Source of the DNA: Thermotogota bacterium
GTDB taxonomy: Bacteria; Thermotogota; Thermotogae; Petrotogales; Kosmotogaceae
Length of the DNA stretch: 13,274 nt
Reading direction: 5' to 3'
Assembly (NCBI GenBank): GCA_034660555.1
Contig: JAYEJL010000080.1
Span: 1 to 13,274, forward strand
The translations under genes were made by a program, and so were the position numbers. Of this stretch, positions 523-13,217 are shown piece after piece (position 1 is the first letter of the stretch; every line of letters begins with the position of its first letter). Under the pieces are notes generated by a model. It was not told where the DNA came from and did not search any database. It worked only from the letters and a program-made list of their open reading frames with translations.

Positions 523-551
523 ATTATAAACTATGATAATGACCTTTTCAA
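523..551 (-). promoter_or_regulatory. sigma70-type promoter of tRNA-Trp
   Basis: Minus strand TTGAAA (551-546), 17-nt spacer, TATAAT (528-523), 10 nt upstream of the tRNA. The -35 box overlaps the TGA stop of the mnhD-like gene. Confidence 0.8.
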
Positions 552-1990
552 GGCAAAAAGAACAAATATGTAAGAACAATTCCAATAAAAACAAAATAAA
601 TCCCTAGAGCATTGTCAAGCCTTTCAAACAATCTTGGCAAAGGTTTAAAAGAACTTCTAAATACAAAATAGGCTAAAATCCCGAGCGAAATGACAATAAG
701 AGATTCAACAAAATGATGGAAGTTGAAACCAATTATTCCGTGTAAAAATATTATCGAAATCAATATCCAGTAAGCCGTGTTAACATTCCAACTTTGCTTT
801 GATTTTTGCCTGCTATATCCAAGAAAAATGAATTTAGAAAAACTCATTACTGTCCCAATTGACGCAGCAATAAGCAGAACATCTGAAAAGTAAGGTACTG
901 AATCAAGAATCCTTCCCTTTGTTACAAAACCCGATGTTAATGGCGCACCGCTTATAGCAAGAGCCCCCACAAAAAGTGGTATATATTCCTTTTTGAGTAA
1001 TTTTCCTTTCCATTTAGAAATATCCTGGGTACCTAATCTCTCATAAATATTACCGACAGACATAAATAAAAGGCCCTTAAAAACAGCGTGGCTGAACCCA
1101 TGCCAGGCACCGGCAATGTTGCTCGCTGCAACAATAAAACCCACCTGAGAAAGTGTATGGTAGGCCAAAATACTTTTTGCCTTTTTAGAATTCATTGCAA
1201 ATATGACAGCTATAACGGCACTGATTGAACCAATAACAAGGTAGACATTACTTAACCAGTAAAAAGAATCGTAAAGTAAAAATCTTATTATCAGGTAATC
1301 TTCTACTTTTACCATTATCCCAGACAATATTGGTGAAACCTCTGTTGGCGCTCCGCTATGAGCATCGGGTAACCACATAGAAACAAAAAACAAACCTGAT
1401 TTTACAGATAAACCTATGAATATCAATGCAGGCAAAAATGTTCCTATTTCATTTAGAGATTCAAAGCTAAAGCTACCCGTTTGATAATATATTAGACCGA
1501 TAGCTATAAGATATATATAGAATCCCAAAGAAGCAATAATCATGTATTTCAAAGAAGCCCATATTTGTTTTGACTTCCTTCTATAAGCAATCAACAGAAA
1601 ACCAATAATTGAAACAAGCTCGAAAGTGACATAAATGTTAAACAAATCACGTGAAATATATACAGCATTTAATGAACCATATAATAGTGTTAGCAAATCA
1701 TAAAATAGCCCGCTGTAGTTTTTTTTCAACGAATTTATTGCAACTGCTCCAATAATTACCAGAGAAGCCAGTAAAAAAGGTAATGTAAGTTCGTCATAAC
1801 CTATTGAAATACCCAGATTGCCCCAATTTCCAAGAGCATAACTAAACTCCTTACCCAGCAGAAAAGGAATAAATACACCACATACACCAAGAGAAAGAAA
1901 AAGCAATGATATGGACAGCATTCTCCATCTGTGGAAAATCATGGAAACACTTCCAGCTATAATGGGCACTATTACAAGATATACAATCAT
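548..1990 (-). CDS. mnhD: Mrp/Mnh antiporter subunit D (MrpD/MbhH-like proton-conducting membrane transporter)
   Basis: Multi-TM protein with DLFNIYVTFE, ASLKY, KSGLF..WLPDAHSGAP..VS.ILSG..VK, SHAVFKGLLF and GAPLTSGFVTK motifs of the complex I/Mrp antiporter-like family. Confidence 0.88.
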   Translation of the reverse strand: MIVYLVIVPIIAGSVSMIFHRWRMLSISLLFLSLGVCGVFIPFLLGKEFSYALGNWGNLGISIGYDELTLPFLLASLVIIGAVAINSLKKNYSGLFYDLLTLLYGSLNAVYISRDLFNIYVTFELVSIIGFLLIAYRRKSKQIWASLKYMIIASLGFYIYLIAIGLIYYQTGSFSFESLNEIGTFLPALIFIGLSVKSGLFFVSMWLPDAHSGAPTEVSPILSGIMVKVEDYLIIRFLLYDSFYWLSNVYLVIGSISAVIAVIFAMNSKKAKSILAYHTLSQVGFIVAASNIAGAWHGFSHAVFKGLLFMSVGNIYERLGTQDISKWKGKLLKKEYIPLFVGALAISGAPLTSGFVTKGRILDSVPYFSDVLLIAASIGTVMSFSKFIFLGYSRQKSKQSWNVNTAYWILISIIFLHGIIGFNFHHFVESLIVISLGILAYFVFRSSFKPLPRLFERLDNALGIYFVFIGIVLTYLFFLP

Positions 1991-2349
1991 TGTGTTTCCC
2001 TTTCAAAAATACGCTCGATTGTATGCACATCAAGCGTGTGATATCTGTTGTGAAGCATTACTGTAAATACTAATAAAAGACTCAAAACAGCAAAACCTAT
2101 CACAATACCAGTTATAATGACAGCTTGAGGAATGGGATTGGCCATTGTTATCACATAACCATCAACAGAAGTAATAATTGGTGCTGTTATACCATTTACA
2201 GAAGAAATTCCCGTATAAAACAAAACTGTTGATATCTCAACCACTGCAAGAGATAGCACCTTTTTTAAGATATTCCTATTAAAAAACAATCCTGCAATAC
2301 CAATAAAAAAAGATACCATCGCAGTCAAAATGATAATCGATGAAATCAA
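1987..2349 (-). CDS. mnhC: Mrp/Mnh antiporter subunit C
   Basis: Three TM helices, NILKKVLSL and NPIPQAVIITGIVIGFA (MrpC consensus DP.PQAL.LTAIVI). ATGA overlaps with both neighbours. Confidence 0.9.
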   Translation of the reverse strand: MISSIIILTAMVSFFIGIAGLFFNRNILKKVLSLAVVEISTVLFYTGISSVNGITAPIITSVDGYVITMANPIPQAVIITGIVIGFAVLSLLLVFTVMLHNRYHTLDVHTIERIFERETQ

Positions 2350-3029
2350 AGCGTACCCCTCCTGACTACAAATTCGCTAGCCAGTTTCCACGAACCAGCA
2401 TACACTTTGAAACCAATTAAAAGATTTATCAATGGGATGATTCCTCCGCTTAATACAGAATAAGCTTCTGGTGGGCTGGTAAAAACCAAAACTACATCAG
2501 GAAATACCGAAACCATTGTCATGACTGAAATTACAGCAACAAATGATATTGTCTCAAAAAACTTTATTTTGTAAACGTCATAATGTGCAAGTGCCTTAAT
2601 AAAATTCGAGCAAATTCCATACAAAACAACCCCGCTGGCCAGTATTACTCCTCCAGCAAAACCACCCCCAGGGGTTATATGACCTCTCAAAACCACATTC
2701 AAGAAAATTACTATAGAGATAGCCATTATTACACCACTAAAAACCCTTGCTGTTAAAAAAACTGTTTGTTCTGAGATTTCACTTTTTGGCTCATACTTTA
2801 AAAGAAAACCAACAGATACCACAATAAGTGAAAATAAAAGCACTTCGAAAACTGTGTCATATACTCTGATTAACAAATAAACTGCGGTGACTGTATTTGG
2901 CAGATTCGTTCTTTCCCAGATTAAATGTACATTATTATCTGTTACAGCAGTTCCAAAAGCTGGTATAAAATGAACCATAAAAACAACGATAAAATATACA
3001 AAAATAATCGAAAAGACTATTTTCTTCAT
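2346..3029 (-). CDS. mnhB: Mrp/Mnh antiporter subunit B (MbhE-like plus MnhB domains)
   Basis: PNTVTAVYLLIRVYDTVFEV (N.V.A....R..DT..E motif) and GHITPGGGFAGG (MnhB signature). Confidence 0.9.
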   Translation of the reverse strand: MKKIVFSIIFVYFIVVFMVHFIPAFGTAVTDNNVHLIWERTNLPNTVTAVYLLIRVYDTVFEVLLFSLIVVSVGFLLKYEPKSEISEQTVFLTARVFSGVIMAISIVIFLNVVLRGHITPGGGFAGGVILASGVVLYGICSNFIKALAHYDVYKIKFFETISFVAVISVMTMVSVFPDVVLVFTSPPEAYSVLSGGIIPLINLLIGFKVYAGSWKLASEFVVRRGTL

Positions 3030-3721
3030 AAATATCTCTCCACCATCTTTTCGATTTCACTATTTTCCTTGAGATCATTTATGTTTTCTTCCATAACTTC
3101 CTTTATATCCAGCGAAGCTTCAGAAAACAAGAAAACATAATTCGTTCTATGTGAAGGCAGTGCCTCGATTTCGCTCTTCTTTTTAGAAAGAGATTTTAGG
3201 TGAACGTAATCAATTTCTTCACCGTTATGATTAAAAATCATTGTTTCAAGATATGGTAAATACTCAATTTCTTTTGTTGATTTTGTTATCTCTTTCGTTA
3301 TTCCACCGCACAAGATATCCAGCTTTCTCTTCTTGAGGTCATTGATCGCTTCATCAATACTGTTGTACTGCACTGATTCAATTTCATAACCCTCAATTTT
3401 TTCAATTCTTGATATTATCTGCCATTCCAATCCTTCAAAACCATTGGCGTTTCTTTCTATCATATAGGGAGTTTCAACAAAACCCATTCTCACTTTTCTT
3501 TGTTTTCTAATGGCCATTACATAAATGAGAAAAATCAGAACAACACCAACAGTAAACTGTGTAAGAGCCACATCGGGAGCTCCAATAAGGAGCATCAATA
3601 CTGAAGAGAAAAAACCAACAATCCCGTACCAAAGGACACTTTTAAAAGAGGATTTTACTATTGTAACAGCAGCAGCAGAAATAACATATAGTCCTGCAAA
3701 AAGAATTATTATATAATTCAT
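3026..3721 (-). CDS. DUF4040/MbhD-like (MrpA C-terminal) antiporter subunit fused to a truncated family-3 solute-binding-protein-like domain
   Basis: Residues 1-72 form three TMs with GAPDVALTQ (DUF4040 signature APDVA.T[EQ]). Residues ~76-231 are soluble and resemble SBP_bac_3 (GFEGLEWQI; AINDLKKRKLDILCGG; INDLKENSEIEKMVERYL). Confidence 0.8.
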   Translation of the reverse strand: MNYIIILFAGLYVISAAAVTIVKSSFKSVLWYGIVGFFSSVLMLLIGAPDVALTQFTVGVVLIFLIYVMAIRKQRKVRMGFVETPYMIERNANGFEGLEWQIISRIEKIEGYEIESVQYNSIDEAINDLKKRKLDILCGGITKEITKSTKEIEYLPYLETMIFNHNGEEIDYVHLKSLSKKKSEIEALPSHRTNYVFLFSEASLDIKEVMEENINDLKENSEIEKMVERYL

Positions 3722-3722
3722 T

Positions 3723-3995
3723 TCACTTTCTCCCGGATTTTAAAGAAGCTCTAGCAATTATGTGTGTTATTGCAGGGCTCATAATTATCAGTACCACCAG
3801 AATTACAATTGTTTCAATAACTCCCAGTAAACCCATGAAAGCAGCTGAGAGAATAAGTAGGCTTAACCCTATTGTATCCGCAACACTCAGAAAGTGTAAC
3901 GTTATTATCACTGTTTTACTAATTACAGCACGTATTGTGCCTAATACCAACAAAAAAGCTCCAGCAAAAAACAAAACATATGCCGTTGTTATCAT
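3723..3995 (-). CDS. mnhG: Mrp/Mnh antiporter subunit G
   Basis: Three TMs, LHFLSVADTIG and SPAITHIIARA (MrpG motifs), and position in the cluster. Confidence 0.85.
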   Translation of the reverse strand: MITTAYVLFFAGAFLLVLGTIRAVISKTVIITLHFLSVADTIGLSLLILSAAFMGLLGVIETIVILVVLIIMSPAITHIIARASLKSGRK

Positions 3996-4240
3996 TCTCT
4001 CACTCCAAGAAAATAGGCAGCTATGATGGTTCCACCAGTATTCATTAAAAGGAACACCAGAACAAGCTCTGAAAGAAAATTTATACTAAAAAAACCATCA
4101 AGAAAAATCATCAAAACTGCTACCTTTTGCATTATTGACGAATATGCTATTAATGTCTTCCATGGGTTTCTATCTTTCGTATACAACATCATAATTATTG
4201 TAAGAAAAAATGCAAGTCCTGTAGCTACAAAAGTAATCAT
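3992..4240 (-). CDS. mnhF: Mrp/Mnh antiporter subunit F (divergent)
   Basis: 82-aa, three-TM protein between E and G; the C-terminal NTGGTIIAAYFL resembles MrpF (F.GT.A.A.FL). Confidence 0.68.
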   Translation of the reverse strand: MITFVATGLAFFLTIIMMLYTKDRNPWKTLIAYSSIMQKVAVLMIFLDGFFSINFLSELVLVFLLMNTGGTIIAAYFLGVRE

Positions 4241-4593
4241 TTTTTTACTCCATGAACAACTAATTTGTCATCTTCTTTCATGACAACGATTTCTTCAGGT
4301 GTAAGCGTAACAGAAATAATCTTGGCAAACTCATCTATTCTGTTTTCGGGAACTTCAGTCTCGTATGCAGTAAAATTTGGCTTTCTAAAAATCAATGTTA
4401 TTGATTGAAACAAGGCTAAAGGATACTTCGATAGTATCTTCATAGATGCTCTTAGTGAATTACCTCGAGGAAGTAATTTTCTTGAAAAGTAAACTGCCAC
4501 AACGGAAATAATCAACGCAAATATTATATTTTCTAGTGAGTAATTTGGTGCAAGCATGAACCATATCATTAAAGATGCCACAAAAATAATCAT
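4237..4593 (-). CDS. mnhE: Mrp/Mnh antiporter subunit E (short)
   Basis: N-terminal TMs with IWFML, ISVTLTPEE (MrpE SITLTPG motif) and C-terminal LVVH. Confidence 0.82.
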   Translation of the reverse strand: MIIFVASLMIWFMLAPNYSLENIIFALIISVVAVYFSRKLLPRGNSLRASMKILSKYPLALFQSITLIFRKPNFTAYETEVPENRIDEFAKIISVTLTPEEIVVMKEDDKLVVHGVKK

Positions 4594-5522
4594 TCTTTGA
4601 TAATTGGCTTCACTCTGAAGCCTTCCTCCATTTTAAAATGCTGCATCCATCCGGTTAACATGTATTTTTCAATAATATCCAGTGCTTTGTTGTATTCTTC
4701 ATAAGTTATTCTCCTGGCAATTTTCTTATATTCTTTTGCTCTGTGAACAGGCCTATATTGCGACATAAGTGAAATGGGTACAGAATGAGAAAGCTCAAAT
4801 GAAACAAACTCTGCCATTTTTTCAGTTCCTGCAAGATTTTCCGGCAAAACTAGATGCCTTATTATAAGACCTTTTTTTAACTCTTCTTTAAAAGCACCAA
4901 CCTGTCTGAACATCTCTTTAATTGCCTTTCTAGTGACTGTCCAGTAATTATTCACTTTTGAGTATTTTTTTCCAATGCTGTCATCTGTATATCTAATATC
5001 CGGAAGATAAATATCAACGATCCCGTCAATAAGTTTCAATATCTCTGTTTTTTCATATCCGCTTGTATTATATACTATAGGCAGTACCAGCCCATTTTTA
5101 GCAGCAATTTTTAATGCCGAAACTATGAATGGAAGATGAGATGTTGGAGTAACAAGATTGATATTTTCTGCTCCGTTACTCTGTAAATCTACAAATATCC
5201 GGGCAAGCTCTTCTACTGAAATATCATTACCGTAATTTTTCTGGCTTATACCAAAATTTTGACAATAAACACATTTCATGGTACAACCTGAAAAGAAAAT
5301 CGTACCTGAACCACCACTTTTTACCAGTGGAGGTTCTTCACCAAAATGCCTTACCACATTTGATATTCGAGGATTATCACCCTGCATACAGATGCCCATA
5401 TCAGTATATCTGTTTACTCCGCACTCTCTAGGGCAAAGTTTGCAGTTTTCCATATGCTCCATTAGTTCCTTCTCAATATCATTTATTTTTCCACTTTTAA
5501 CCAGATCGATGTAATTTCTCAT
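4590..5522 (-). CDS. PflX-like radical SAM Fe-S protein (PFL-activating-enzyme-related, function unknown)
   Basis: N-terminal CKLCPRECGVNR..G.C, HFGEEPPL, GSGTIFFSGCTMKCVYCQN (CxxxCxxC), YNTSGYE, DIYLPD and IIRHLVLP, all typical of the PflX family. Confidence 0.9.
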   Translation of the reverse strand: MRNYIDLVKSGKINDIEKELMEHMENCKLCPRECGVNRYTDMGICMQGDNPRISNVVRHFGEEPPLVKSGGSGTIFFSGCTMKCVYCQNFGISQKNYGNDISVEELARIFVDLQSNGAENINLVTPTSHLPFIVSALKIAAKNGLVLPIVYNTSGYEKTEILKLIDGIVDIYLPDIRYTDDSIGKKYSKVNNYWTVTRKAIKEMFRQVGAFKEELKKGLIIRHLVLPENLAGTEKMAEFVSFELSHSVPISLMSQYRPVHRAKEYKKIARRITYEEYNKALDIIEKYMLTGWMQHFKMEEGFRVKPIIKE

Positions 5523-5531
5523 GAATCAATC

Positions 5532-6797
5532 CTACTCATCAGGATATATTTCCAATTTCGCGCCAAGATCCCTGTATTTTTCCCTTAGACTTTCATAACC
5601 TCTAAATATATGGCTAGCATTCTCAATAGTACTTTCTCCTTCAGCTGACAAAGCTGCCACCAGTAAAGCTGCTGCTGCACGAATATCCGGAGCGCTTACC
5701 CTGGTGCCGCTTAGTTTTTTTACACCCGATATAAAAGCTGTTCTGTCATGAACCTTTACCCTGGCTCCCATTCTGTTCAATTCATCAACATAACCAAAGC
5801 GGTTTTCAAAGACAAGCTCCTCTACCTGAGAATCCCCTTCTGCAGTACATAAAACAGCTGTTATTATTGGTTGTAGATCTGTTGGAAATCCTGGATATGG
5901 TTCTGCGCTTACCTTAAGAGGTTTTAGTGAATAAATTACTGAAACTTCAACATATTCCTCGTTTATCTCAGCATCAACACCTAGTTCTTTAACCTTTTTC
6001 AAAAAAGCCTCTGAATACTTGGCAAAGGGACCTTCCACCTTAACCTTACCTTTTGTTGCAATACCTGCAAGCAGATACGTACAAGCTTCTATTCTGTCGG
6101 GGATAATTTCGTATTCAACACCCTTTTTGTTATTGCTACCTATTACTGTTAATCTGTTGGTCCCAGCTCCCGTAATGTTTGCACCCATGGCATTAAGAAA
6201 ATTCTGCAGATCCTCTATTTCAGGTTCTCTGGCTACGTTTTCAAGTTCGAGTTCCATTCCTGGAATAAAAGCTGCTGAAGTCATTAATTGCTCAGTAGTA
6301 CCAACACTTGGAAATGGCAATTCATAGCTGATTCTTTTTGCAACGCTATCCATTATTTTGCTATGAATATCACCGTGTTCCTCAAAAATTTCAAAGCCTA
6401 TCGCCTTCAATCCATCTATATGGTAATCAACAGGTCTTTGTCCAATATTACAACCACCTGGTTTACCAACCTTAGCCCATCCACATGCCACTGTTAAAGG
6501 GCCAAGTAGATTGAATGAAGCTCTCATCTTTCCAACCAGTTCATATGGAATACTTCCAATCAATAGTTTCCCGGGATCAACGATGACAGTATTATCGGAA
6601 AAGGAAACCTGTTTGCCAACATGCTGCAATATAGAAAGCATTGTATGAACATCCTTTAAATCTGGAACATTTTTGATTATTACTCTGTCGTCAACTAAAA
6701 CAGTAGCTGCAAGTATAGGAAGTGCTGCATTCTTTGAACCGCTTGCTTTAACTCTTCCCTTGAGCTGAGTGCCCCCATCTATTACGATATGACTCAT
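5532..6797 (-). CDS. murA: UDP-N-acetylglucosamine 1-carboxyvinyltransferase
   Basis: GSKNAALP, MRAS, PGGCNIGQRPVDYH (catalytic Cys loop), PYPGFPTDLQ, FENRF and RGYE. RBS GGAGG upstream. Confidence 0.97.
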   Translation of the reverse strand: MSHIVIDGGTQLKGRVKASGSKNAALPILAATVLVDDRVIIKNVPDLKDVHTMLSILQHVGKQVSFSDNTVIVDPGKLLIGSIPYELVGKMRASFNLLGPLTVACGWAKVGKPGGCNIGQRPVDYHIDGLKAIGFEIFEEHGDIHSKIMDSVAKRISYELPFPSVGTTEQLMTSAAFIPGMELELENVAREPEIEDLQNFLNAMGANITGAGTNRLTVIGSNNKKGVEYEIIPDRIEACTYLLAGIATKGKVKVEGPFAKYSEAFLKKVKELGVDAEINEEYVEVSVIYSLKPLKVSAEPYPGFPTDLQPIITAVLCTAEGDSQVEELVFENRFGYVDELNRMGARVKVHDRTAFISGVKKLSGTRVSAPDIRAAAALLVAALSAEGESTIENASHIFRGYESLREKYRDLGAKLEIYPDE

Positions 6798-8877: not shown

Positions 8878-10077
8878 ATTAACGGACCTATTGAAATAGT
8901 TAAGAATGTTTTTTGGGTTGGAGCCAATGATTTTGACACAGCACTTTTTGAAAATCTCTGGCCATTGCCCAGAGGAATTTCCTATAATTCATTTCTAATA
9001 AATGATGAAAAGGTTGCACTTTTTGACACTGTAAAAAGCTGTTACTTCCCAACCTTTTTAAAAAGAATAAGAAAAACCCTTCCTAAAGGAAAAGGGGTCG
9101 ATTATCTAATAATAAACCATATGGAACCTGACCATTCAGGTTCAATTGAAGCACTTAAAGATGCATATCCAGATATAAAAATTGTAGGAAACAACAAGAC
9201 ATTGAACTTCCTCAAAGGCTTTTATGATATCGAAGATAATACCGTAGAAATAAAGGATGGACAGGTAATTGAACTAGGGAAACACAAGTTGAGTTTTTTC
9301 ATGACACCCATGGTGCACTGGCCTGAGACGATGATGACATATGAGGAAACAGAAGGAATCATTTTTTCAGGTGATGCATTTGGAGGATTTGGTACTTTGA
9401 ATGGTGGAATTTTTGATGACGAAGTAGATACAGAATATTTCGAAGGAGAAATACTTCGCTACTTTTCAAATATTGTCGGTCGTTACAGTCCAATGGTCCA
9501 ACGGGCAATGAAAAAACTTAAAGAGGCCGAAGTTGATATCAACATAGTAGCAGCAACCCATGGCCCAATCTGGAGGAAGAATCCGAAAACTATTATTGAC
9601 CTGTATGACAGATGGAGTAGATTTGAATCAGATCCCGGGGTCGTGCTGGTATTCGGTTCAATGTATGGTAATACTCAATCAATGATGGAAGCTGTTGCAA
9701 GGGGATTAACTGAAGAAGGTGTTACAAATATTAGAATACACAACATTTCTACATCTCACTTATCATATATAATTAGAGATATCTGGCAGTTCAAAGCTGC
9801 CATTTTTGGCAGTTGCACATACAATACAGAACTTTTTCCACCAATGAAGTTATTGTTAGCAGAGCTTTCAAATAGAATGATAGAAAACAAGCTTTTGGGT
9901 TTATTTGGATCATATAGCTGGAGTTCAGGTGCATTACAGGAACTTAAATCCTTCCAGGAAAATTCAAAATGGGAACTTGTAGAGCCTACTCTTGAAATTA
10001 GACATGCACCAACAAAGGAGCAACTATCTTCCTTAAAAGAACTGGGAAGAAATATGGCAAAAAAACTCGGAACGTAA
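8878..10077 (+). CDS. fprA: Flavodiiron protein (FprA family, class A; O2/NO reductase), probable ATT start
   Basis: Diiron ligands NHMEPDHSG, VHWPE, SGDAFG and ATHG; flavodoxin motif SMYGNT. FprA-like N-terminal sequence (EIVKNVFWVGAND...LFENLWPLP) continues in frame upstream of the track's TTG at 8965 to an ATT at 8878 behind the SD; 399 aa. Confidence 0.92.
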   Translation: MNGPIEIVKNVFWVGANDFDTALFENLWPLPRGISYNSFLINDEKVALFDTVKSCYFPTFLKRIRKTLPKGKGVDYLIINHMEPDHSGSIEALKDAYPDIKIVGNNKTLNFLKGFYDIEDNTVEIKDGQVIELGKHKLSFFMTPMVHWPETMMTYEETEGIIFSGDAFGGFGTLNGGIFDDEVDTEYFEGEILRYFSNIVGRYSPMVQRAMKKLKEAEVDINIVAATHGPIWRKNPKTIIDLYDRWSRFESDPGVVLVFGSMYGNTQSMMEAVARGLTEEGVTNIRIHNISTSHLSYIIRDIWQFKAAIFGSCTYNTELFPPMKLLLAELSNRMIENKLLGLFGSYSWSSGALQELKSFQENSKWELVEPTLEIRHAPTKEQLSSLKELGRNMAKKLGT

Positions 10078-10091
10078 ATTAGGGGGAATAA

Positions 10092-10547
10092 TTGATGGAT
10101 GTTTTTTTTGTTGTAAATAGATTTTTCTTAATATTGTCAATGTTTTTCTGGGGAGCATCAATAATCTGGGTAAACGGTTTTATTAAACCTCTCTTAAAAA
10201 GGAAAACATCATCTGAAATGCAGGGATTCATTTTTAGAACTATGAGATTTCAAAGACGAGTAGTTTATTTATGTTGGCTGTTGTTTCTCGGAACCGCCAC
10301 AACTGCATATACAGCTGGAGATCCTATGCTACAACGTTTTGAGCTACTAAACACAGCCGGTATCATAACAGTAATTGTATTCTTCATACATATTTTCTTT
10401 TCATTCTACATGTTCCGAATTTCAAGAATGAATGAATACAGTCCCATGTCTATTACAGAACGAGAAGTGAAAATACTTGTAAACGGTGGCTATGTAAATA
10501 TTTTCATTTTCCTTGTGACCTTTGCACTCGCTTTTTCTCAGTTATAA
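10092..10547 (+). CDS. Hypothetical four-TM membrane protein (loosely DUF4149/CopD-like)
   Basis: Four hydrophobic segments, SD AGGGGG at 10081-10086, 14 nt after the fprA stop. Start could be TTG 10092 or ATG 10095. Confidence 0.72.
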   Translation: MMDVFFVVNRFFLILSMFFWGASIIWVNGFIKPLLKRKTSSEMQGFIFRTMRFQRRVVYLCWLLFLGTATTAYTAGDPMLQRFELLNTAGIITVIVFFIHIFFSFYMFRISRMNEYSPMSITEREVKILVNGGYVNIFIFLVTFALAFSQL

Positions 10548-10683: not shown

Positions 10684-11409
10684 TCAGTTTTTGTCAATTA
10701 TTTTCGGACCTTCAATATTGTAAAAATTTCTATAATATTCGTCGAATTTACTCTCAAGTATGTTCATAATTCTTGAGATATCTTCTTTTTCTTTAAGAGA
10801 TTGATCTGGATATATAGGAGAACCATAATGAACAGTAACTTCCTTTAATTTCTTATAATCTTTAAATATTCTTTTTATCGCTCTTAAAGGAGGTTGTTTA
10901 TCGAGTTCTGGTTTAAACGTATAACCATTTTCGATACCTACAGGAATAACTGGAACATCTGCTTTATGGGCAATTTCAGCAACTCCAGAATACAGTATTT
11001 TTTGCCAGTTCCAGTAACCTTCTGGAAATATCATGATTCTTCCATCATTTTTTAGAAAATTGACTATTTTATCTACAGTTTTATTATTGATTTCTTTCTT
11101 AATTTTTGGATCTTGTGAAACCCTAAATCGCCATATAGATTTGTAAAAAAATCTCAAAAAGGGATATGGCCCATCAACCTGGTACATAGCTCGTACTCTA
11201 AATATCTTGCTAACTCTGGTAATTAATAAAGGATCGAAGTTACCCACATGAATTGAACACAATATATATGGTGGTTTACACAATTTCCCTTTCTTCTTTA
11301 TCTTAACGATCAATGGTAAAGGAACTACAATAAAAACTATATAAAAAAACCAGATAATTTCGTAAATTATTGTGAGGAAAAAATTTTTGGTTAAAACCAG
11401 TAAATTCAT
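10684..11409 (-). CDS. PlsC-like (lysophospholipid) acyltransferase family protein
   Basis: N-terminal TM, HVGNFD (HxxxxD), IMIFPEG, GVAEIA..ADVPVIPVGI and VTVHYGSPI. Confidence 0.88.
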   Translation of the reverse strand: MNLLVLTKNFFLTIIYEIIWFFYIVFIVVPLPLIVKIKKKGKLCKPPYILCSIHVGNFDPLLITRVSKIFRVRAMYQVDGPYPFLRFFYKSIWRFRVSQDPKIKKEINNKTVDKIVNFLKNDGRIMIFPEGYWNWQKILYSGVAEIAHKADVPVIPVGIENGYTFKPELDKQPPLRAIKRIFKDYKKLKEVTVHYGSPIYPDQSLKEKEDISRIMNILESKFDEYYRNFYNIEGPKIIDKN

Positions 11410-11411
11410 TA

Positions 11412-12476
11412 TTAGTTACTCCCTTTTCCTAAACTTTTTTTCACGTGGAACATAAATATTACTGTGCCCATTAAAATCAAAAAATAGTAAATAACCAACC
11501 TCCAAACAGAGATGCTTACAATTAAATATTGCTGGGGAATGAAGTTCTTCAGAGATATGAACATTACAGATTCAAAACCTCCGCTTGAACCTGGTGTTGG
11601 TAAATAATAGACAATAAAACTTAAAAATGCCTGTATCGAAAGACTGTCTAATAAAGTAAAACCAAATTTCTCATTAGCAATAAATTGAAAACCTATTACA
11701 ATCACATAGAAAACCGCATAATTAAAAAAAACAAATCCCAAAGCCAGAAAATAATCCAAAAAAATTGTCTTTGGGGATTTTGCCCATATAAACTTCATGC
11801 TGTCATTGTACTTAATTAATTTAGTCTTTAAAGTATTCAGGATAATCTGTTTATCTTTTCCTGTTATTTTTTCAGCTAACTTAAGTAACAAAACACGATT
11901 TTTAAGGAAGTTGATGAACTTTATAAGCAACGTTCTCGAAAAAGCAAGAACTGTAAACAATGTTCCAACTGAAAGAGTTGTTATCATCCCTATGACAAAT
12001 ACTTTGCCTGTAACACCTAACGTAGCTAATATACTGAAATATCTAGAAAAGAAAATAATAGCTATAGTGGAAGTCGCAAAATTCAAATTCAAATATTGAG
12101 TAATGACAACTGCTGTTGCATGTGATAATTCAACATTATTATATGAGTTCAGCTCGTAGATTTGATAGGGTTGCCCTCCTGCTGCAAAAGGAGTAATGGC
12201 ATTAAAGAATTGCCCAAGTACTACATTAAGTGAAGTCTTAAAAAATGGAACTGAATAACCGAGACTTCTCAATAACATATATATCCTTAAAGATGCAATG
12301 AGAATACTAAACAAAAAAACTATGATACCCGCTAATGCTATATGCCAAAAATTTCTCAATAAATTAGGATCAATTGAGTTACCAAAAAGCTTTTGAATAA
12401 CTAATAATATGACTATACTTACACCGAGTCCGAAAAAAATGCCTTTTATTGGTAGAGAAGTTTTTTTTACTTCCAT
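11412..12476 (-). CDS. UPF0104 / lysylphosphatidylglycerol-synthase TM-region (flippase-like) membrane protein
   Basis: Multi-TM protein with FFNAITPFAAGGQP, LPTPGSSGGFE and VWRLVIYY family motifs. Confidence 0.88.
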   Translation of the reverse strand: MEVKKTSLPIKGIFFGLGVSIVILLVIQKLFGNSIDPNLLRNFWHIALAGIIVFLFSILIASLRIYMLLRSLGYSVPFFKTSLNVVLGQFFNAITPFAAGGQPYQIYELNSYNNVELSHATAVVITQYLNLNFATSTIAIIFFSRYFSILATLGVTGKVFVIGMITTLSVGTLFTVLAFSRTLLIKFINFLKNRVLLLKLAEKITGKDKQIILNTLKTKLIKYNDSMKFIWAKSPKTIFLDYFLALGFVFFNYAVFYVIVIGFQFIANEKFGFTLLDSLSIQAFLSFIVYYLPTPGSSGGFESVMFISLKNFIPQQYLIVSISVWRLVIYYFLILMGTVIFMFHVKKSLGKGSN

Positions 12477-12485
12477 ATTTTTCTT

Positions 12486-13217
12486 TTACTTCTCATTGTA
12501 ATAGTTACTATCATAATAATCATCATATGTGATTTTATTTCTGTTTAAAGCAACATCCAACCAAAGCTTGAATGCTTCTTTTATACCATGCATGAAGTTA
12601 ACACGAGTATATCTTCTATTTGATGTATAACAAATCATAGAAGGTATAAATTTTACTTTTCCAATTTTTTTTAGCTTTTTTGCCAGGATAAAATCTTGAG
12701 ATGCCACCTTGCTTTCTAACATATATCCACCTACTTGCTTATATGCCTTTCTTTTCATTCCAAAGTTTGCCGCACCACATAAACTAACTCCAAAAATATT
12801 TGATATAGCATTAAAAATACTATAACCCCATATCAGAAGAAGTTGTCTGATTCTCCCATCTTCCCTGAATGCCATTGGACCATATACAGCTACGATTTTG
12901 TCACTTTTTAGTTTGTCAACCATCTTCATAAGCCAGTTTTCGGGGTATATTGTATCAGCATCGCATACTGTTATAATTTTACCTTTTGCCATTGTAAAAC
13001 CTTTATGCATAGCAAAAAGTGGCCCTCTGCGCTCTTCAAAGAAAACTTTATTTGTGTATTTCTTAGCAATTTCAGGGCTGTTATCGGAGCTTCCATTATC
13101 AACCACAATAATCTCGTAATCCTTGAAAGATTGCGCTTTTATTGATTGCAAAGTACTTTCAAGCCATTTTTCTTCATTTAGTACAGGAACAACAACACTT
13201 ACCAATTTATTCAACAT
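12486..13217 (-). CDS. Family 2 glycosyltransferase
   Basis: VSVVVPVLNEE, EIIVVDNGSSD, DADT (DxD), VGGY, QDF and TSNRR. Confidence 0.92.
   Translation of the reverse strand: MLNKLVSVVVPVLNEEKWLESTLQSIKAQSFKDYEIIVVDNGSSDNSPEIAKKYTNKVFFEERRGPLFAMHKGFTMAKGKIITVCDADTIYPENWLMKMVDKLKSDKIVAVYGPMAFREDGRIRQLLLIWGYSIFNAISNIFGVSLCGAANFGMKRKAYKQVGGYMLESKVASQDFILAKKLKKIGKVKFIPSMICYTSNRRYTRVNFMHGIKEAFKLWLDVALNRNKITYDDYYDSNYYNEK

Follow-up and report, generated by a model that had tools for sequence, protein, structure and literature searches.

A half solute-binding protein fused to an Mrp-type antiporter subunit in Thermotogota

A fused gene in a single-pump Mrp-type operon

We analysed a stretch of 13,274 nucleotides (nt) from a Kosmotogaceae bacterium of the phylum Thermotogota (assembly GCA_034660555.1, contig JAYEJL010000080.1), hereafter the window. 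It carries a run of seven minus-strand Mrp-type genes, the fourth of which (3026-3721, minus strand, 231 residues) is a single open reading frame (ORF) that joins a small membrane module of the MbhD/DUF4040 type to a soluble domain of the family-3 solute-binding protein (SBP) type, with one lobe kept and the other reduced to a stump. This fused gene is the subject of the present work. Both the fold of its soluble domain and the fusion itself are established by the comparisons below: a natural half binding protein on an antiporter subunit is real, conserved and unusual.

The seven genes follow the order mnhE-F-G-[fused gene]-B-C-D and are tightly packed: counting the junction with a radical-SAM gene upstream, six of seven junctions are 4-nt overlaps and the remaining one is a 1-nt gap. 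All lie on the minus strand. The first encodes a short mnhE/mrpE-like subunit (4237..4593, 118 residues; Pfam MNHE, E 3.5e-6, 27.3 bits against a cut-off of 27) and overlaps the next gene by 4 nt. That gene, mnhF/mrpF-like (3992..4240, 82 residues), is assigned by position: the Pfam scan gave no match and the NCBIfam subunit-F match was weak (E 0.0029, below cut-off), and the same slot is filled by PF04066 MrpF in three relatives (L021, L037, L053). The mnhG/mrpG-like gene follows (3723..3995, 90 residues; Pfam PhaG_MnhG_YufB, E 1.2e-9). On the other side, and again with a 4-nt overlap, the fused gene is followed by an MnhB-type subunit with an N-terminal extension (2346..3029, 227 residues; Pfam MnhB at 95-214, E 1e-14), likely MbhE-like, whose orthologue in L021 also matches PF20501 MbhE, and then by an mnhC/NuoK-like subunit (1987..2349, 120 residues; Pfam Oxidored_q2, E 1.1e-16) and an mnhD/MbhH-like antiporter-type pump subunit (548..1990, 480 residues; Pfam Proton_antipo_M, E 4.9e-48). 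Except for F, all operon proteins (six of seven) are named by Pfam and NCBIfam.

The pump gene at 548-1990 is the only PF00361 gene in the operon, the matching clusters of relatives likewise have one, and Pfam and NCBIfam scans found no MrpA N-terminal domain in the operon. The gene set therefore lacks the two pumps of Mrp (MrpA-N plus MrpD) and matches the membrane arm of the membrane-bound hydrogenase (MBH), which has one. We take the order E-F-G-D-(E)B-C-D to be that of mbhA-H, the archaeal MBH membrane arm. In the parts read, no NuoH-like gene and no NuoB/C/D/I-like peripheral-arm gene was found beside the fused gene (the window's contig ends 547 nt past mnhD), nor was any ABC permease/ATPase, sensor kinase or channel gene found in the operon or in the relatives' clusters. 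At all ten loci examined in other families and in long-form metagenome-assembled genomes (MAGs, see below), Mrp-subunit genes adjoin the fused gene, and seven of the ten show a PF00361 pump gene, one each; L015, L018 and L053 show partial clusters. Gene content and order thus show, at the level of annotation, that the fused gene encodes the MbhD/MrpA-C-type subunit of a seven-gene, single-pump Mrp-type cation/proton antiporter.

A three-helix MbhD module with an unusual helix 3

Residues 1-75 (3497..3721) make up a three-helix MbhD/MrpA-C module resembling transmembrane helices (TM) 1-3 of NuoJ, as seen by Pfam, phmmer and an AlphaFold2 model. The match to MbhD (PF13244) covers residues 11-75 (E 3.7e-17, 62.7 bits against a cut-off of 27.2) and is accompanied by a weak match to Oxidored_q3; phmmer aligned the module to 6u8y_D, 7d3u_A, 7qru_A, 6z16_A and 6cfw_D. 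In the model the helices span 2-21, 25-46 and 49-73, and the signature GAPDVALTQ lies at 47-55, with the APDVA(L/M)T motif (48-54) between helices 2 and 3. A basic linker, RKQRK (residues 72-76, 3494..3508), carries the end of TM3 directly into the first strand of the soluble domain: DSSP on the model places the helix to 73 and the strand from 76. The linker consists of a few basic residues in all 32 full-length fused forms compared.

In solved Mrp antiporters TM3 reads ...ALTQxxxE. Its Glu is numbered E706 in the Anoxybacillus protein and E656 in that of Dietzia, of which an E656A variant is inactive (accessible text of PMC7733839). In MBH the TM3 carboxylate is Glu69 of MbhD, at an earlier position, according to the accessible part of PMC8679088, and the chains of MBH and of the related sulfane reductase (MBS) read A(L/M)TE there, aligned to Q55 of the fused protein. 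The window protein carries no carboxylate at either aligned position, having Q55 and G59 (window 3545-3559). Position 55 varies in the 32 fused forms, with E in 22, Q in five (Kosmotogaceae and Marinitoga) and S in five; G59 is invariant. This pattern suggests an altered ion-coupling site in the window's clade.

The soluble domain keeps one lobe of a binding protein

The sequence-only reading of this DNA had described, by eye, an MbhD module fused to a one-lobed SBP domain, and the strings on which it relied are all present in the translation (GAPDVALTQ, RKQRK, KVRMGF, GLEWQI, DILCGGIT, PYLET and YVFLF, with a C-terminus ending ...MVERYL). The profile search agrees: SBP_bac_3 (PF00497) matches residues 78-231 (E 5.8e-9, 36.2 bits against a cut-off of 26.4) from profile position 2 to 130 of 132. 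Such full coverage of PF00497.25 is no proof of both lobes, because its 132 positions span 216-220 residues in the ordinary SBPs of this genome; over the identical positions the fused protein has 154 residues, against 216-220 in three ordinary SBPs. With phmmer against the PDB, domain residues 9-78 align to 4oen_A 14-83 and residues 104-156 to 171-222, leaving lobe 2 of 4oen_A (84-170, 87 residues) to face about 25 residues of the fused protein. The anchors L158 and Y195 are separated by 36 residues, where 4oen has about 98 by hand count. The arrangement typical of an SBP, two lobes of comparable size around a ligand cleft, is thus absent, lobe 2 being reduced to about 25-36 residues from about 87-98.

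Three parts can be delimited. The first segment of lobe 1 (residues 76-160, 3242..3496) holds b1-a1-b2-a2-b3 and the strand into hinge 1 (PYLET), in agreement between Pfam, the alignment to 4oen_A 14-83, the model and VIA-align. The lobe-2 stump (161-194, 3140..3241) contains the strand ends, a short strand (168-171) and a basic helix (172-181) with a D171..K176 motif. The second segment of lobe 1 (195-231, 3029..3139; 4oen_A 171-222) consists of the return strand YVFLF and two C-terminal helices. In the AlphaFold2 model (mean predicted local distance difference test score, pLDDT, 83.4; predicted TM-score, pTM, 0.65; no segment below 50) a long strand (153-165) runs outward to strand 168-171 and helix 172-181, and a second long strand (188-199) returns to the C-terminal helices (201-219 and 222-230); the stump itself is modelled at pLDDT 80-86. 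VIA-align superposed residues 74-231 on two-lobed glutamine/glutamate binders with Z 18.8 (rmsd 2.2, 155 residues aligned of a 221-residue chain) and on GluR0 and glutamate-receptor cores (GluD1/2) with Z 18.4-18.8, and Foldseek agrees with the SBP fold. A profile of 19 homologues retrieved 57 PDB sequences at E <= 1, comprising SBPs and MbhD/MrpA chains; the best sequence matches of the domain are binding domains fused to GlnPQ-type permeases. In the HMMER alignment T145 stands opposite the ligand-binding Arg of 4oen, bearing out the earlier remark that this Arg is missing, and that stretch is variable in the 19 homologues.

Sequence and model comparisons together show that the 156-residue domain descends from a family-3 SBP. 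The lobe-2 core has been lost from it, and what remains is lobe 1 with the two hinge strands and a short basic helix.

The fusion is retained in most of the phylum

The 19 full-length homologues share 42-92% identity with the fused protein; the nearest named ones come from a Kosmotogaceae bacterium (87% identity), Kosmotoga pacifica and Mesotoga prima, and the phylum for the counts that follow was set as Thermotogota by the named homologues. The soluble domain alone matches in 82 of 151 genomes of the phylum, and in all 25 domain loci read besides the window's own, the ORF with the domain also holds the MbhD module. A profile of the 32 full-length fused forms found both domains in one open frame (from profile position 6 or below to 225 or above, of 232) in 97 of the 151 genomes and in 10 of 11 family groups. 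Exceptions to the single intact copy are G063 (two copies), G074 (one broken copy) and G022 and G023 (partial). In G074, of a sister family, the MbhD part carries three stops and the domain sits in a separate 198-residue frame (G074:C13:225030-225766). Chance is excluded as an explanation because of the 19 full-length homologues and the 97 genomes with the fusion, and the suspicion that the fusion might be confined to this one genome clearly fails. The comparisons show that the fusion is, as far as its distribution tells, ancient and vertically retained in most of the phylum.

In a set of 1.84 billion representative proteins the domain profile gave 2224 matches at E <= 0.001 and 178 at <= 1e-10. 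Among the best 150, 34 are shorter than 300 residues; the remaining 116 are long and contain several SBP-like stretches each. Scanning 32 of the short matches found MbhD plus SBP_bac_3 in 28, MbhD only in P0062 and P0123, and SBP_bac_3-only fragments in P0030 and P0118; P0001 and P0018 carry both families by precomputed Pfam assignment. Named carriers include Marinitoga litoralis, a Pseudothermotoga sp. and Thermosipho ferrireducens. Two ESM Atlas clusters (60 and 77 members; 266-268 residues), commonest in Candidatus Bipolaricaulota, have MbhD in 100% and SBP_bac_3 in 72-73% of members, and a genome contig search yielded 25 loci with full-length long forms, in MAGs titled by their depositors as Bipolaricaulota/Acetothermia (11), 'uncultured Thermotogae' (13) and Atribacteria (1). 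The domain pair is thus already visible in automatic annotation (Pfam pairs, NCBI names, Atlas). In full-text literature, subscription papers aside, we found neither the fusion nor any soluble domain attached to MbhD or to short MrpA described.

Near-identical DNA of the operon region (window 1900-4700) occurs in three brine-metagenome runs of one study (X1-X3; 0.34-0.98 of sampled words), and the five pieces from X2 are all at least 99% alike to the window. Two crude-oil runs (X6, X7) hold relatives at 85-95% identity, and oil-field and sediment runs showed small word shares. The RNA library X7 was considered as a sign of transcription: 27 of 30 bins of 1900-4700 are covered, the domain included. 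We set it aside; its 85-95% identity points to relatives, and the same pieces appear in DNA run X6, making DNA carry-over possible.

Lobe 2 has eroded to different degrees in a domain under selection

The number of residues between the conserved anchors L158 (YLET) and Y195 (YxF) provides a scale of lobe-2 erosion. From about 98 in an ordinary SBP (4oen, hand count), it falls to 84 in P0171, which aligns with nearly a whole binding protein (4i62_A 32-260), 72 in P0158 and 64-66 in the other long forms, then to 53-62 in Marinitoga-like proteins and two other lineages, 33-43 in most Thermotogota (36 in the window and its family) and 0-7 in 188-195-residue Pseudothermotoga-type proteins. A quick maximum-likelihood tree of 72 sequences groups the long forms in a single clade (SH-aLRT 100) and nests the shortest forms within forms having 38 residues; this tree is unrooted, with many long branches and some lobe-2 columns kept, and was used for nesting only. 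Mean pairwise identity among 29 long forms is 0.64 for the helices, 0.50 for lobe 1a, 0.44 for lobe 1b, 0.42 for the DLxR segment and 0.21 for the lobe-2 core (length 32-52). Even in the long forms, the lobe-2 core is therefore the worst-conserved and most length-variable part, which looks like decay and the lack of a working second lobe, judging from these alignments.

All but the shortest forms keep lobe 1, the hinge strands (YLET..F and YxF) and a strand-helix with D171, nearly invariant in the 32 fused forms, and basic DLxRxK; GxExE, DIxxGG, YLET and DLxRxK are conserved motifs. The ratio of nonsynonymous to synonymous substitution rates (dN/dS) over residues 76-231 was 0.09, 0.09, 0.09 and 0.17 in four within-genus pairs (more distant pairs are saturated at synonymous sites), and for the 34-codon stump it was 0.06-0.15 within genus. 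By this codon measure the domain is under purifying selection and is no relic. A functionless passenger that has not yet been deleted, as the visible decay of lobe 2 and the shrinkage of the domain to about 120 residues in some lineages might suggest, is thus very unlikely: the dN/dS of the domain is low, it is retained in 10 of 11 family groups, its lobe 1 is nearly as conserved as the membrane helices in the long forms (0.50 vs 0.64), and no form devoid of lobe 1 was seen in this cluster type, the plain MbhD genes examined sitting in a different, Mbx-type cluster.

These data also bear on the suggestion, made in the sequence-only reading, of a ligand-regulated antiporter. In that case the now exposed surface of lobe 1 that once lined the cleft, possibly aided by the stump, would bind a cytoplasmic solute or ion, and a signal passing through the linker to TM3 would tune Na+/H+ exchange, by analogy with the SBP-type clamshells that gate glutamate-receptor channels. 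The direct junction with TM3, the strong purifying selection (stump included), the conserved motifs and the presence of glutamate-receptor binding cores among the best structural matches would all suit such a sensor, and simulations of MBH propose that TM3 of MbhD, which has a pi-bulge, is a gate between cytoplasmic and buried Na+ sites (accessible part of PMC8679088). Yet the second lobe is gone, leaving nothing to close on a ligand, the carboxylate-binding Arg is absent from a variable stretch, the conserved motifs are generic motifs of the family fold and form no pocket, and some Pseudothermotoga-type forms have no stump altogether. A clamshell ligand sensor in particular appears unlikely because conservation is lowest in the lobe-2 core, in the longest forms too, and the ligand Arg is missing. 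With the cleft lost, the ligand residues unconserved and the lobe-2 core at 0.21 identity against 0.50 for lobe 1a, the ligand-regulated antiporter is not supported; we rate it unlikely, and less likely than an accessory module.

Charge distribution predicts a cytoplasmic domain

Lys and Arg residues are unevenly distributed in the 32 fused forms: the segment preceding helix 1 has a mean of 0.03 and loop 2 one of 0.09, whereas loop 1 averages 1.78 and the ten residues that follow helix 3 average 2.94. After TM3 every sequence has one to five basic and zero acidic residues (five basic ones in the window protein), loop 2 is free of Lys and Arg in 29 of 32, and the soluble domain is net acidic in 30 of 32 (-10 in the window's). 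Charge therefore predicts an N-out/C-in topology with a cytoplasmic domain, both in the window protein, as the earlier reading had it, and in the other fused forms. In complex I structures the TM3-4 loop of NuoJ is on the cytoplasmic/matrix side, and the helices of a cyanobacterial relative (the all1838 model, see below) superpose on NuoJ/ND6 chains with Z 8.7-9.6. A family-3 SBP domain in the cytoplasm is unusual.

The opposite arrangement, N-in/C-out, would make the domain an extracellular receptor binding solutes at the surface, in the manner of ABC importers that carry fused binding domains. Such a receptor would agree with the normally extracytoplasmic location of family-3 SBP domains and with the best sequence matches, which are fused to GlnPQ-type permeases. 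Against it, all 32 sequences show the same strong charge bias, which predicts that the extracytoplasmic location of family-3 SBPs does not apply here; homology to NuoJ TM1-3 gives a cytoplasmic TM3 end, and no ABC transporter genes occur in the operon. We find an extracellular receptor scarcely credible.

A proposed cytoplasmic accessory domain attached to helix 3

Taken together, these observations lead us to lean, with modest confidence, towards an entrenched cytoplasmic accessory domain, bolted to TM3, with a structural or allosteric role and a decayed lobe 2. In the Mrp structure, MrpC, MrpA-C, MrpF and MrpG form successive three-helix layers with MrpE as a cap (accessible text of PMC7419157), and the cytoplasmic face of the small subunits is proposed as the cation entry (accessible parts of PMC7419157 and PMC8679088). 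We favour an accessory module because strand 1 of the soluble domain starts right after the proposed gate helix, two residues past the end of TM3 in the model, and because the basic linker is short in all 32 forms. Attached directly to TM3, the domain would be held rigidly on the cytoplasmic face of the part formed by the small subunits (the Na+ path); there it would stabilise or cap that face, and it may bias the conformation of TM3 allosterically, no longer working as a clamshell receptor. As for its history, a whole SBP would have been captured once, lobe 1 would have become indispensable to the complex, and lobe 2 would then have decayed stepwise and independently in several lineages. That the domain is cytoplasmic, that it contacts other subunits and that it affects TM3 are all points that we infer.

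Several points weigh against this accessory-domain reading. The cytoplasmic placement is a prediction from the positive-inside rule, itself a rule of thumb, and nearly all SBP_bac_3 domains lie outside the cytoplasm. The relative placement of domain and helices in the model is uncertain (pTM 0.65), and the capping of the Na+ entry face is a geometry that we infer. The strong purifying selection on the stump equally fits a surviving binding function, and isolated SBP lobes can keep weak ligand affinity. That lobe 2 was lost and not gained is deduced from parsimony and an unrooted quick tree. Finally, in a clade without the TM3 carboxylate, the complex may not work as a textbook Mrp.

The domain could instead serve oligomerisation or docking, pairing with its copy in a second complex or recruiting a soluble partner. 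Lobe-1 to lobe-1 dimers are known in glutamate-receptor binding cores, and the loss of lobe 2 exposes a new surface. The Anoxybacillus Mrp structure is indeed a dimer, yet its interface is formed by MrpE and MrpB (accessible text of PMC7419157), with the MrpA-C layer three layers away by geometric estimate. No conserved non-Mrp partner gene was found in the ten fused-gene contexts in which one was sought, the outer flanks varying between families. A homodimer prediction with two copies of the soluble domain gave ipSAE values of 0.00 and 0.00 and, run without controls, weighs neither way on dimerisation. We regard this role as quite unlikely.

MbhD proteins with and without soluble tails

MbhD subunits had been described in the sequence-only reading as normally just the membrane module. 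This holds for the MBH and MBS structures and for the Mbx-type paralogues of two relatives, and fails for cyanobacterial and some Firmicutes MbhD proteins with soluble tails of about 86-125 residues. In both relatives examined, a plain 80-residue MbhD paralogue belongs to an Mbx/MBS-type cluster (L085, G049:C1:260500-274500; L086, G138:C1:1224700-1238800) with the order E-F-G, 80-residue MbhD, MbhE/B, C, two pump subunits, and NuoH-like and NuoC-like genes. The MnhE of these clusters is full-length (155-163 residues in the two relatives). In the window's genome (95.5% complete, 188 contigs), only the fused MbhD was seen. These contrasts in MbhD type and MnhE length fit the accessory-module reading without proving it.

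The Pfam match of the window's mnhE product stops at profile position 121 of 145, and MnhE of the stand-alone clusters that hold the fused gene measures 118-140 residues in Thermotogota and a full-length 162-164 in long-form MAGs. The cytoplasmic ferredoxin-like domain of MnhE may be truncated where the SBP-like domain is present.

The Firmicutes MbhD proteins (181-200 residues) carry soluble tails of 107-125 residues. These start RIFTVYY and were met at loci L059-L065, L072 and L077, labelled Coprobacillaceae, Vallitaleaceae, Eubacteriales and Lachnospiraceae. With hhalign they had no detectable relationship to the SBP-like domain (0.3% with six extensions; 1.5% or 0.09%), and by this comparison the Firmicutes tail is a second kind of appendage at the same position of MbhD.

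The cyanobacterial MbhD proteins (168-223 residues; tails of 86-123) are a different case. NCBIfam PRK07377 models match the fused protein from residue 3 to 136-144, below cut-offs, and score above cut-off in one control genome, Synechococcus elongatus being among the genomes listed. The PRK07377-type family includes all1838, the 'mrpA' of Nostoc/Anabaena PCC 7120. In a model built from a 48-row alignment (pLDDT 77.7), TM3 of all1838 is followed by an alpha/beta domain with five strands. Among the top 50 matches in a structure search with this model, eight rows cover residues 81/82-175/177, and each of them takes in both ends of the target chain (82-93 residues aligned at Z 7.4-7.8); seven are solute-binding or Venus-flytrap proteins by title and the eighth, 5gzs_A ('VC protein'), is unclassified. 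Because these chain ranges span both target ends, the all1838 domain shows the discontinuous lobe-1 pattern, at Z values below 8 that fall in the tool's grey zone. In hhalign, the Thermotogota and cyanobacterial C-terminal profiles align in register from the first strand to the third, over 64 columns, at probabilities of 85.6% (E 5.6e-6) and 79% (E 1.6e-5), which argues against the PRK07377 match being an overrun from the MbhD part; the signal appears only with the 48-row alignment, and with a shallow alignment of nine cyanobacterial extensions the probability was 0.03%. Foldseek with the all1838 model returned nothing at E <= 0.001 (best 3.3e-3, LysR/OxyR effector domains), and the Pfam scan found no SBP domain in all1838-type proteins. 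On balance the cyanobacterial short MrpA probably carries a further-reduced homologue of the domain.

Mutants of all1838 are impaired in growth and photosynthesis, as stated in the accessible part of a review (PMC5703873), where the title of the original paper also links the gene to alkali and Na+ sensitivity. The claim that no characterised Mrp complex has such a domain consequently needs qualifying: the literature searched contains no mention of one, but the genetically studied all1838 probably carries a reduced version.

Significance

A bolder extension, to which we give only a small chance, is that the domain represents a widespread, unrecognised control element of Mrp complexes: an ancestral cytoplasmic Venus-flytrap would have been wired to TM3, lobe 1 would still sense a cytoplasmic ion, pH or a solute and set the TM3 gate allosterically, and a further-reduced module would persist on the cyanobacterial short MrpA. 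If this were true, loss of the module would account in part for the salt and alkali phenotypes of all1838 mutants.

Independently of that extension, Mrp antiporters are ancestors of the complex I membrane arm, and the gating of ion movement through their small subunits is a matter of continuing debate; a soluble domain on the proposed gate helix, under selection throughout a phylum, offers a natural handle on this question. The fused forms also provide a rare natural series of a binding protein losing one lobe (84 down to 0 residues), which bears on the origin of the two-lobed fold and on the entrenchment of captured domains. If the cyanobacterial link holds, the feature reaches organisms with Mrp genetics.

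Other genes in the window

Upstream of the operon, the radical-SAM gene (4590-5522, 310 residues, PF04055 plus Fer4_12) ends 4 nt inside mnhE. Together with a MurA-like gene further upstream (5532-6797) it forms an arrangement common to the Mesotoga-like L027 and not to other families; a radical-SAM gene near L016 is of a different type. A flavodiiron-type protein (8965-10077, plus strand), with an ODP/metallo-beta-lactamase fold and a flavodoxin domain, is followed by a 151-residue ORF (10092-10547) for which Pfam gave no match. Three consecutive genes at 10684-13217 (minus strand) encode a family-2 glycosyltransferase, an LPG_synthase_TM protein and an acyltransferase, a cluster that by annotation looks like membrane-lipid or glycolipid modification.

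Comparison with known systems

The closest structural counterparts of the membrane module are MbhD of the Pyrococcus MBH and sulfane reductase (6CFW_D, 6U8Y_D) and the C-segment of MrpA (6Z16_A, 7QRU_A, 7D3U_A), which share the three-helix APDVA(L/M)T module, the place in the gene order and the neighbouring subunits. They differ in what follows TM3: the MBH/MBS chains end there (94-96 residues) and MrpA continues into more helices, neither bearing a soluble domain such as that of the fused protein. They also differ in the TM3 Glu, at the Q55 position in MbhD and the G59 position in MrpA, and at neither in the fused protein.

For the soluble domain, family-3 SBPs (GlnBP, the GlnPQ domains 4OEN and 6H30, ArtJ, GluR0 and glutamate-receptor cores) have the same fold of lobe 1 and hinge strands (Z 17-18.8, about 155 residues aligned). 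Compared with them, the fused domain is some 62 lobe-2 residues short, lacks the ligand Arg and is predicted to be cytoplasmic; it also sits on an antiporter subunit, whereas family-3 SBP fusions elsewhere are found on an ABC permease, a sensor kinase or a channel. A more distant analogy, and an analogy only, is offered by the KTN/RCK domains of CPA2 transporters and K+ channels, Rossmann-like alpha/beta domains on the cytoplasmic side; no nucleotide-binding motif was seen in the fused domain.

The cyanobacterial short MrpA (PRK07377; all1838) has the same architecture as the fused protein, an MbhD module followed by a soluble alpha/beta domain, with the difference that its domain measures only about 110 residues and has no lobe-2 stump. 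Short MrpA proteins of this kind belong to the group-3 Mrp clusters, for which Na+/H+ antiport has been shown.

Lone lobes have also been made by design. We take 7A99, 6Y16 and 6GPC to be single-domain constructs of the T. maritima arginine-binding protein. In engineered halves of the Thermotoga ribose-binding protein, likewise, a lone lobe folds without its partner lobe (accessible text of PMC10601554). Those lobes are laboratory constructs that test a duplication hypothesis, whereas the fused domain is a natural product of decay, maintained by selection and tethered to the membrane.

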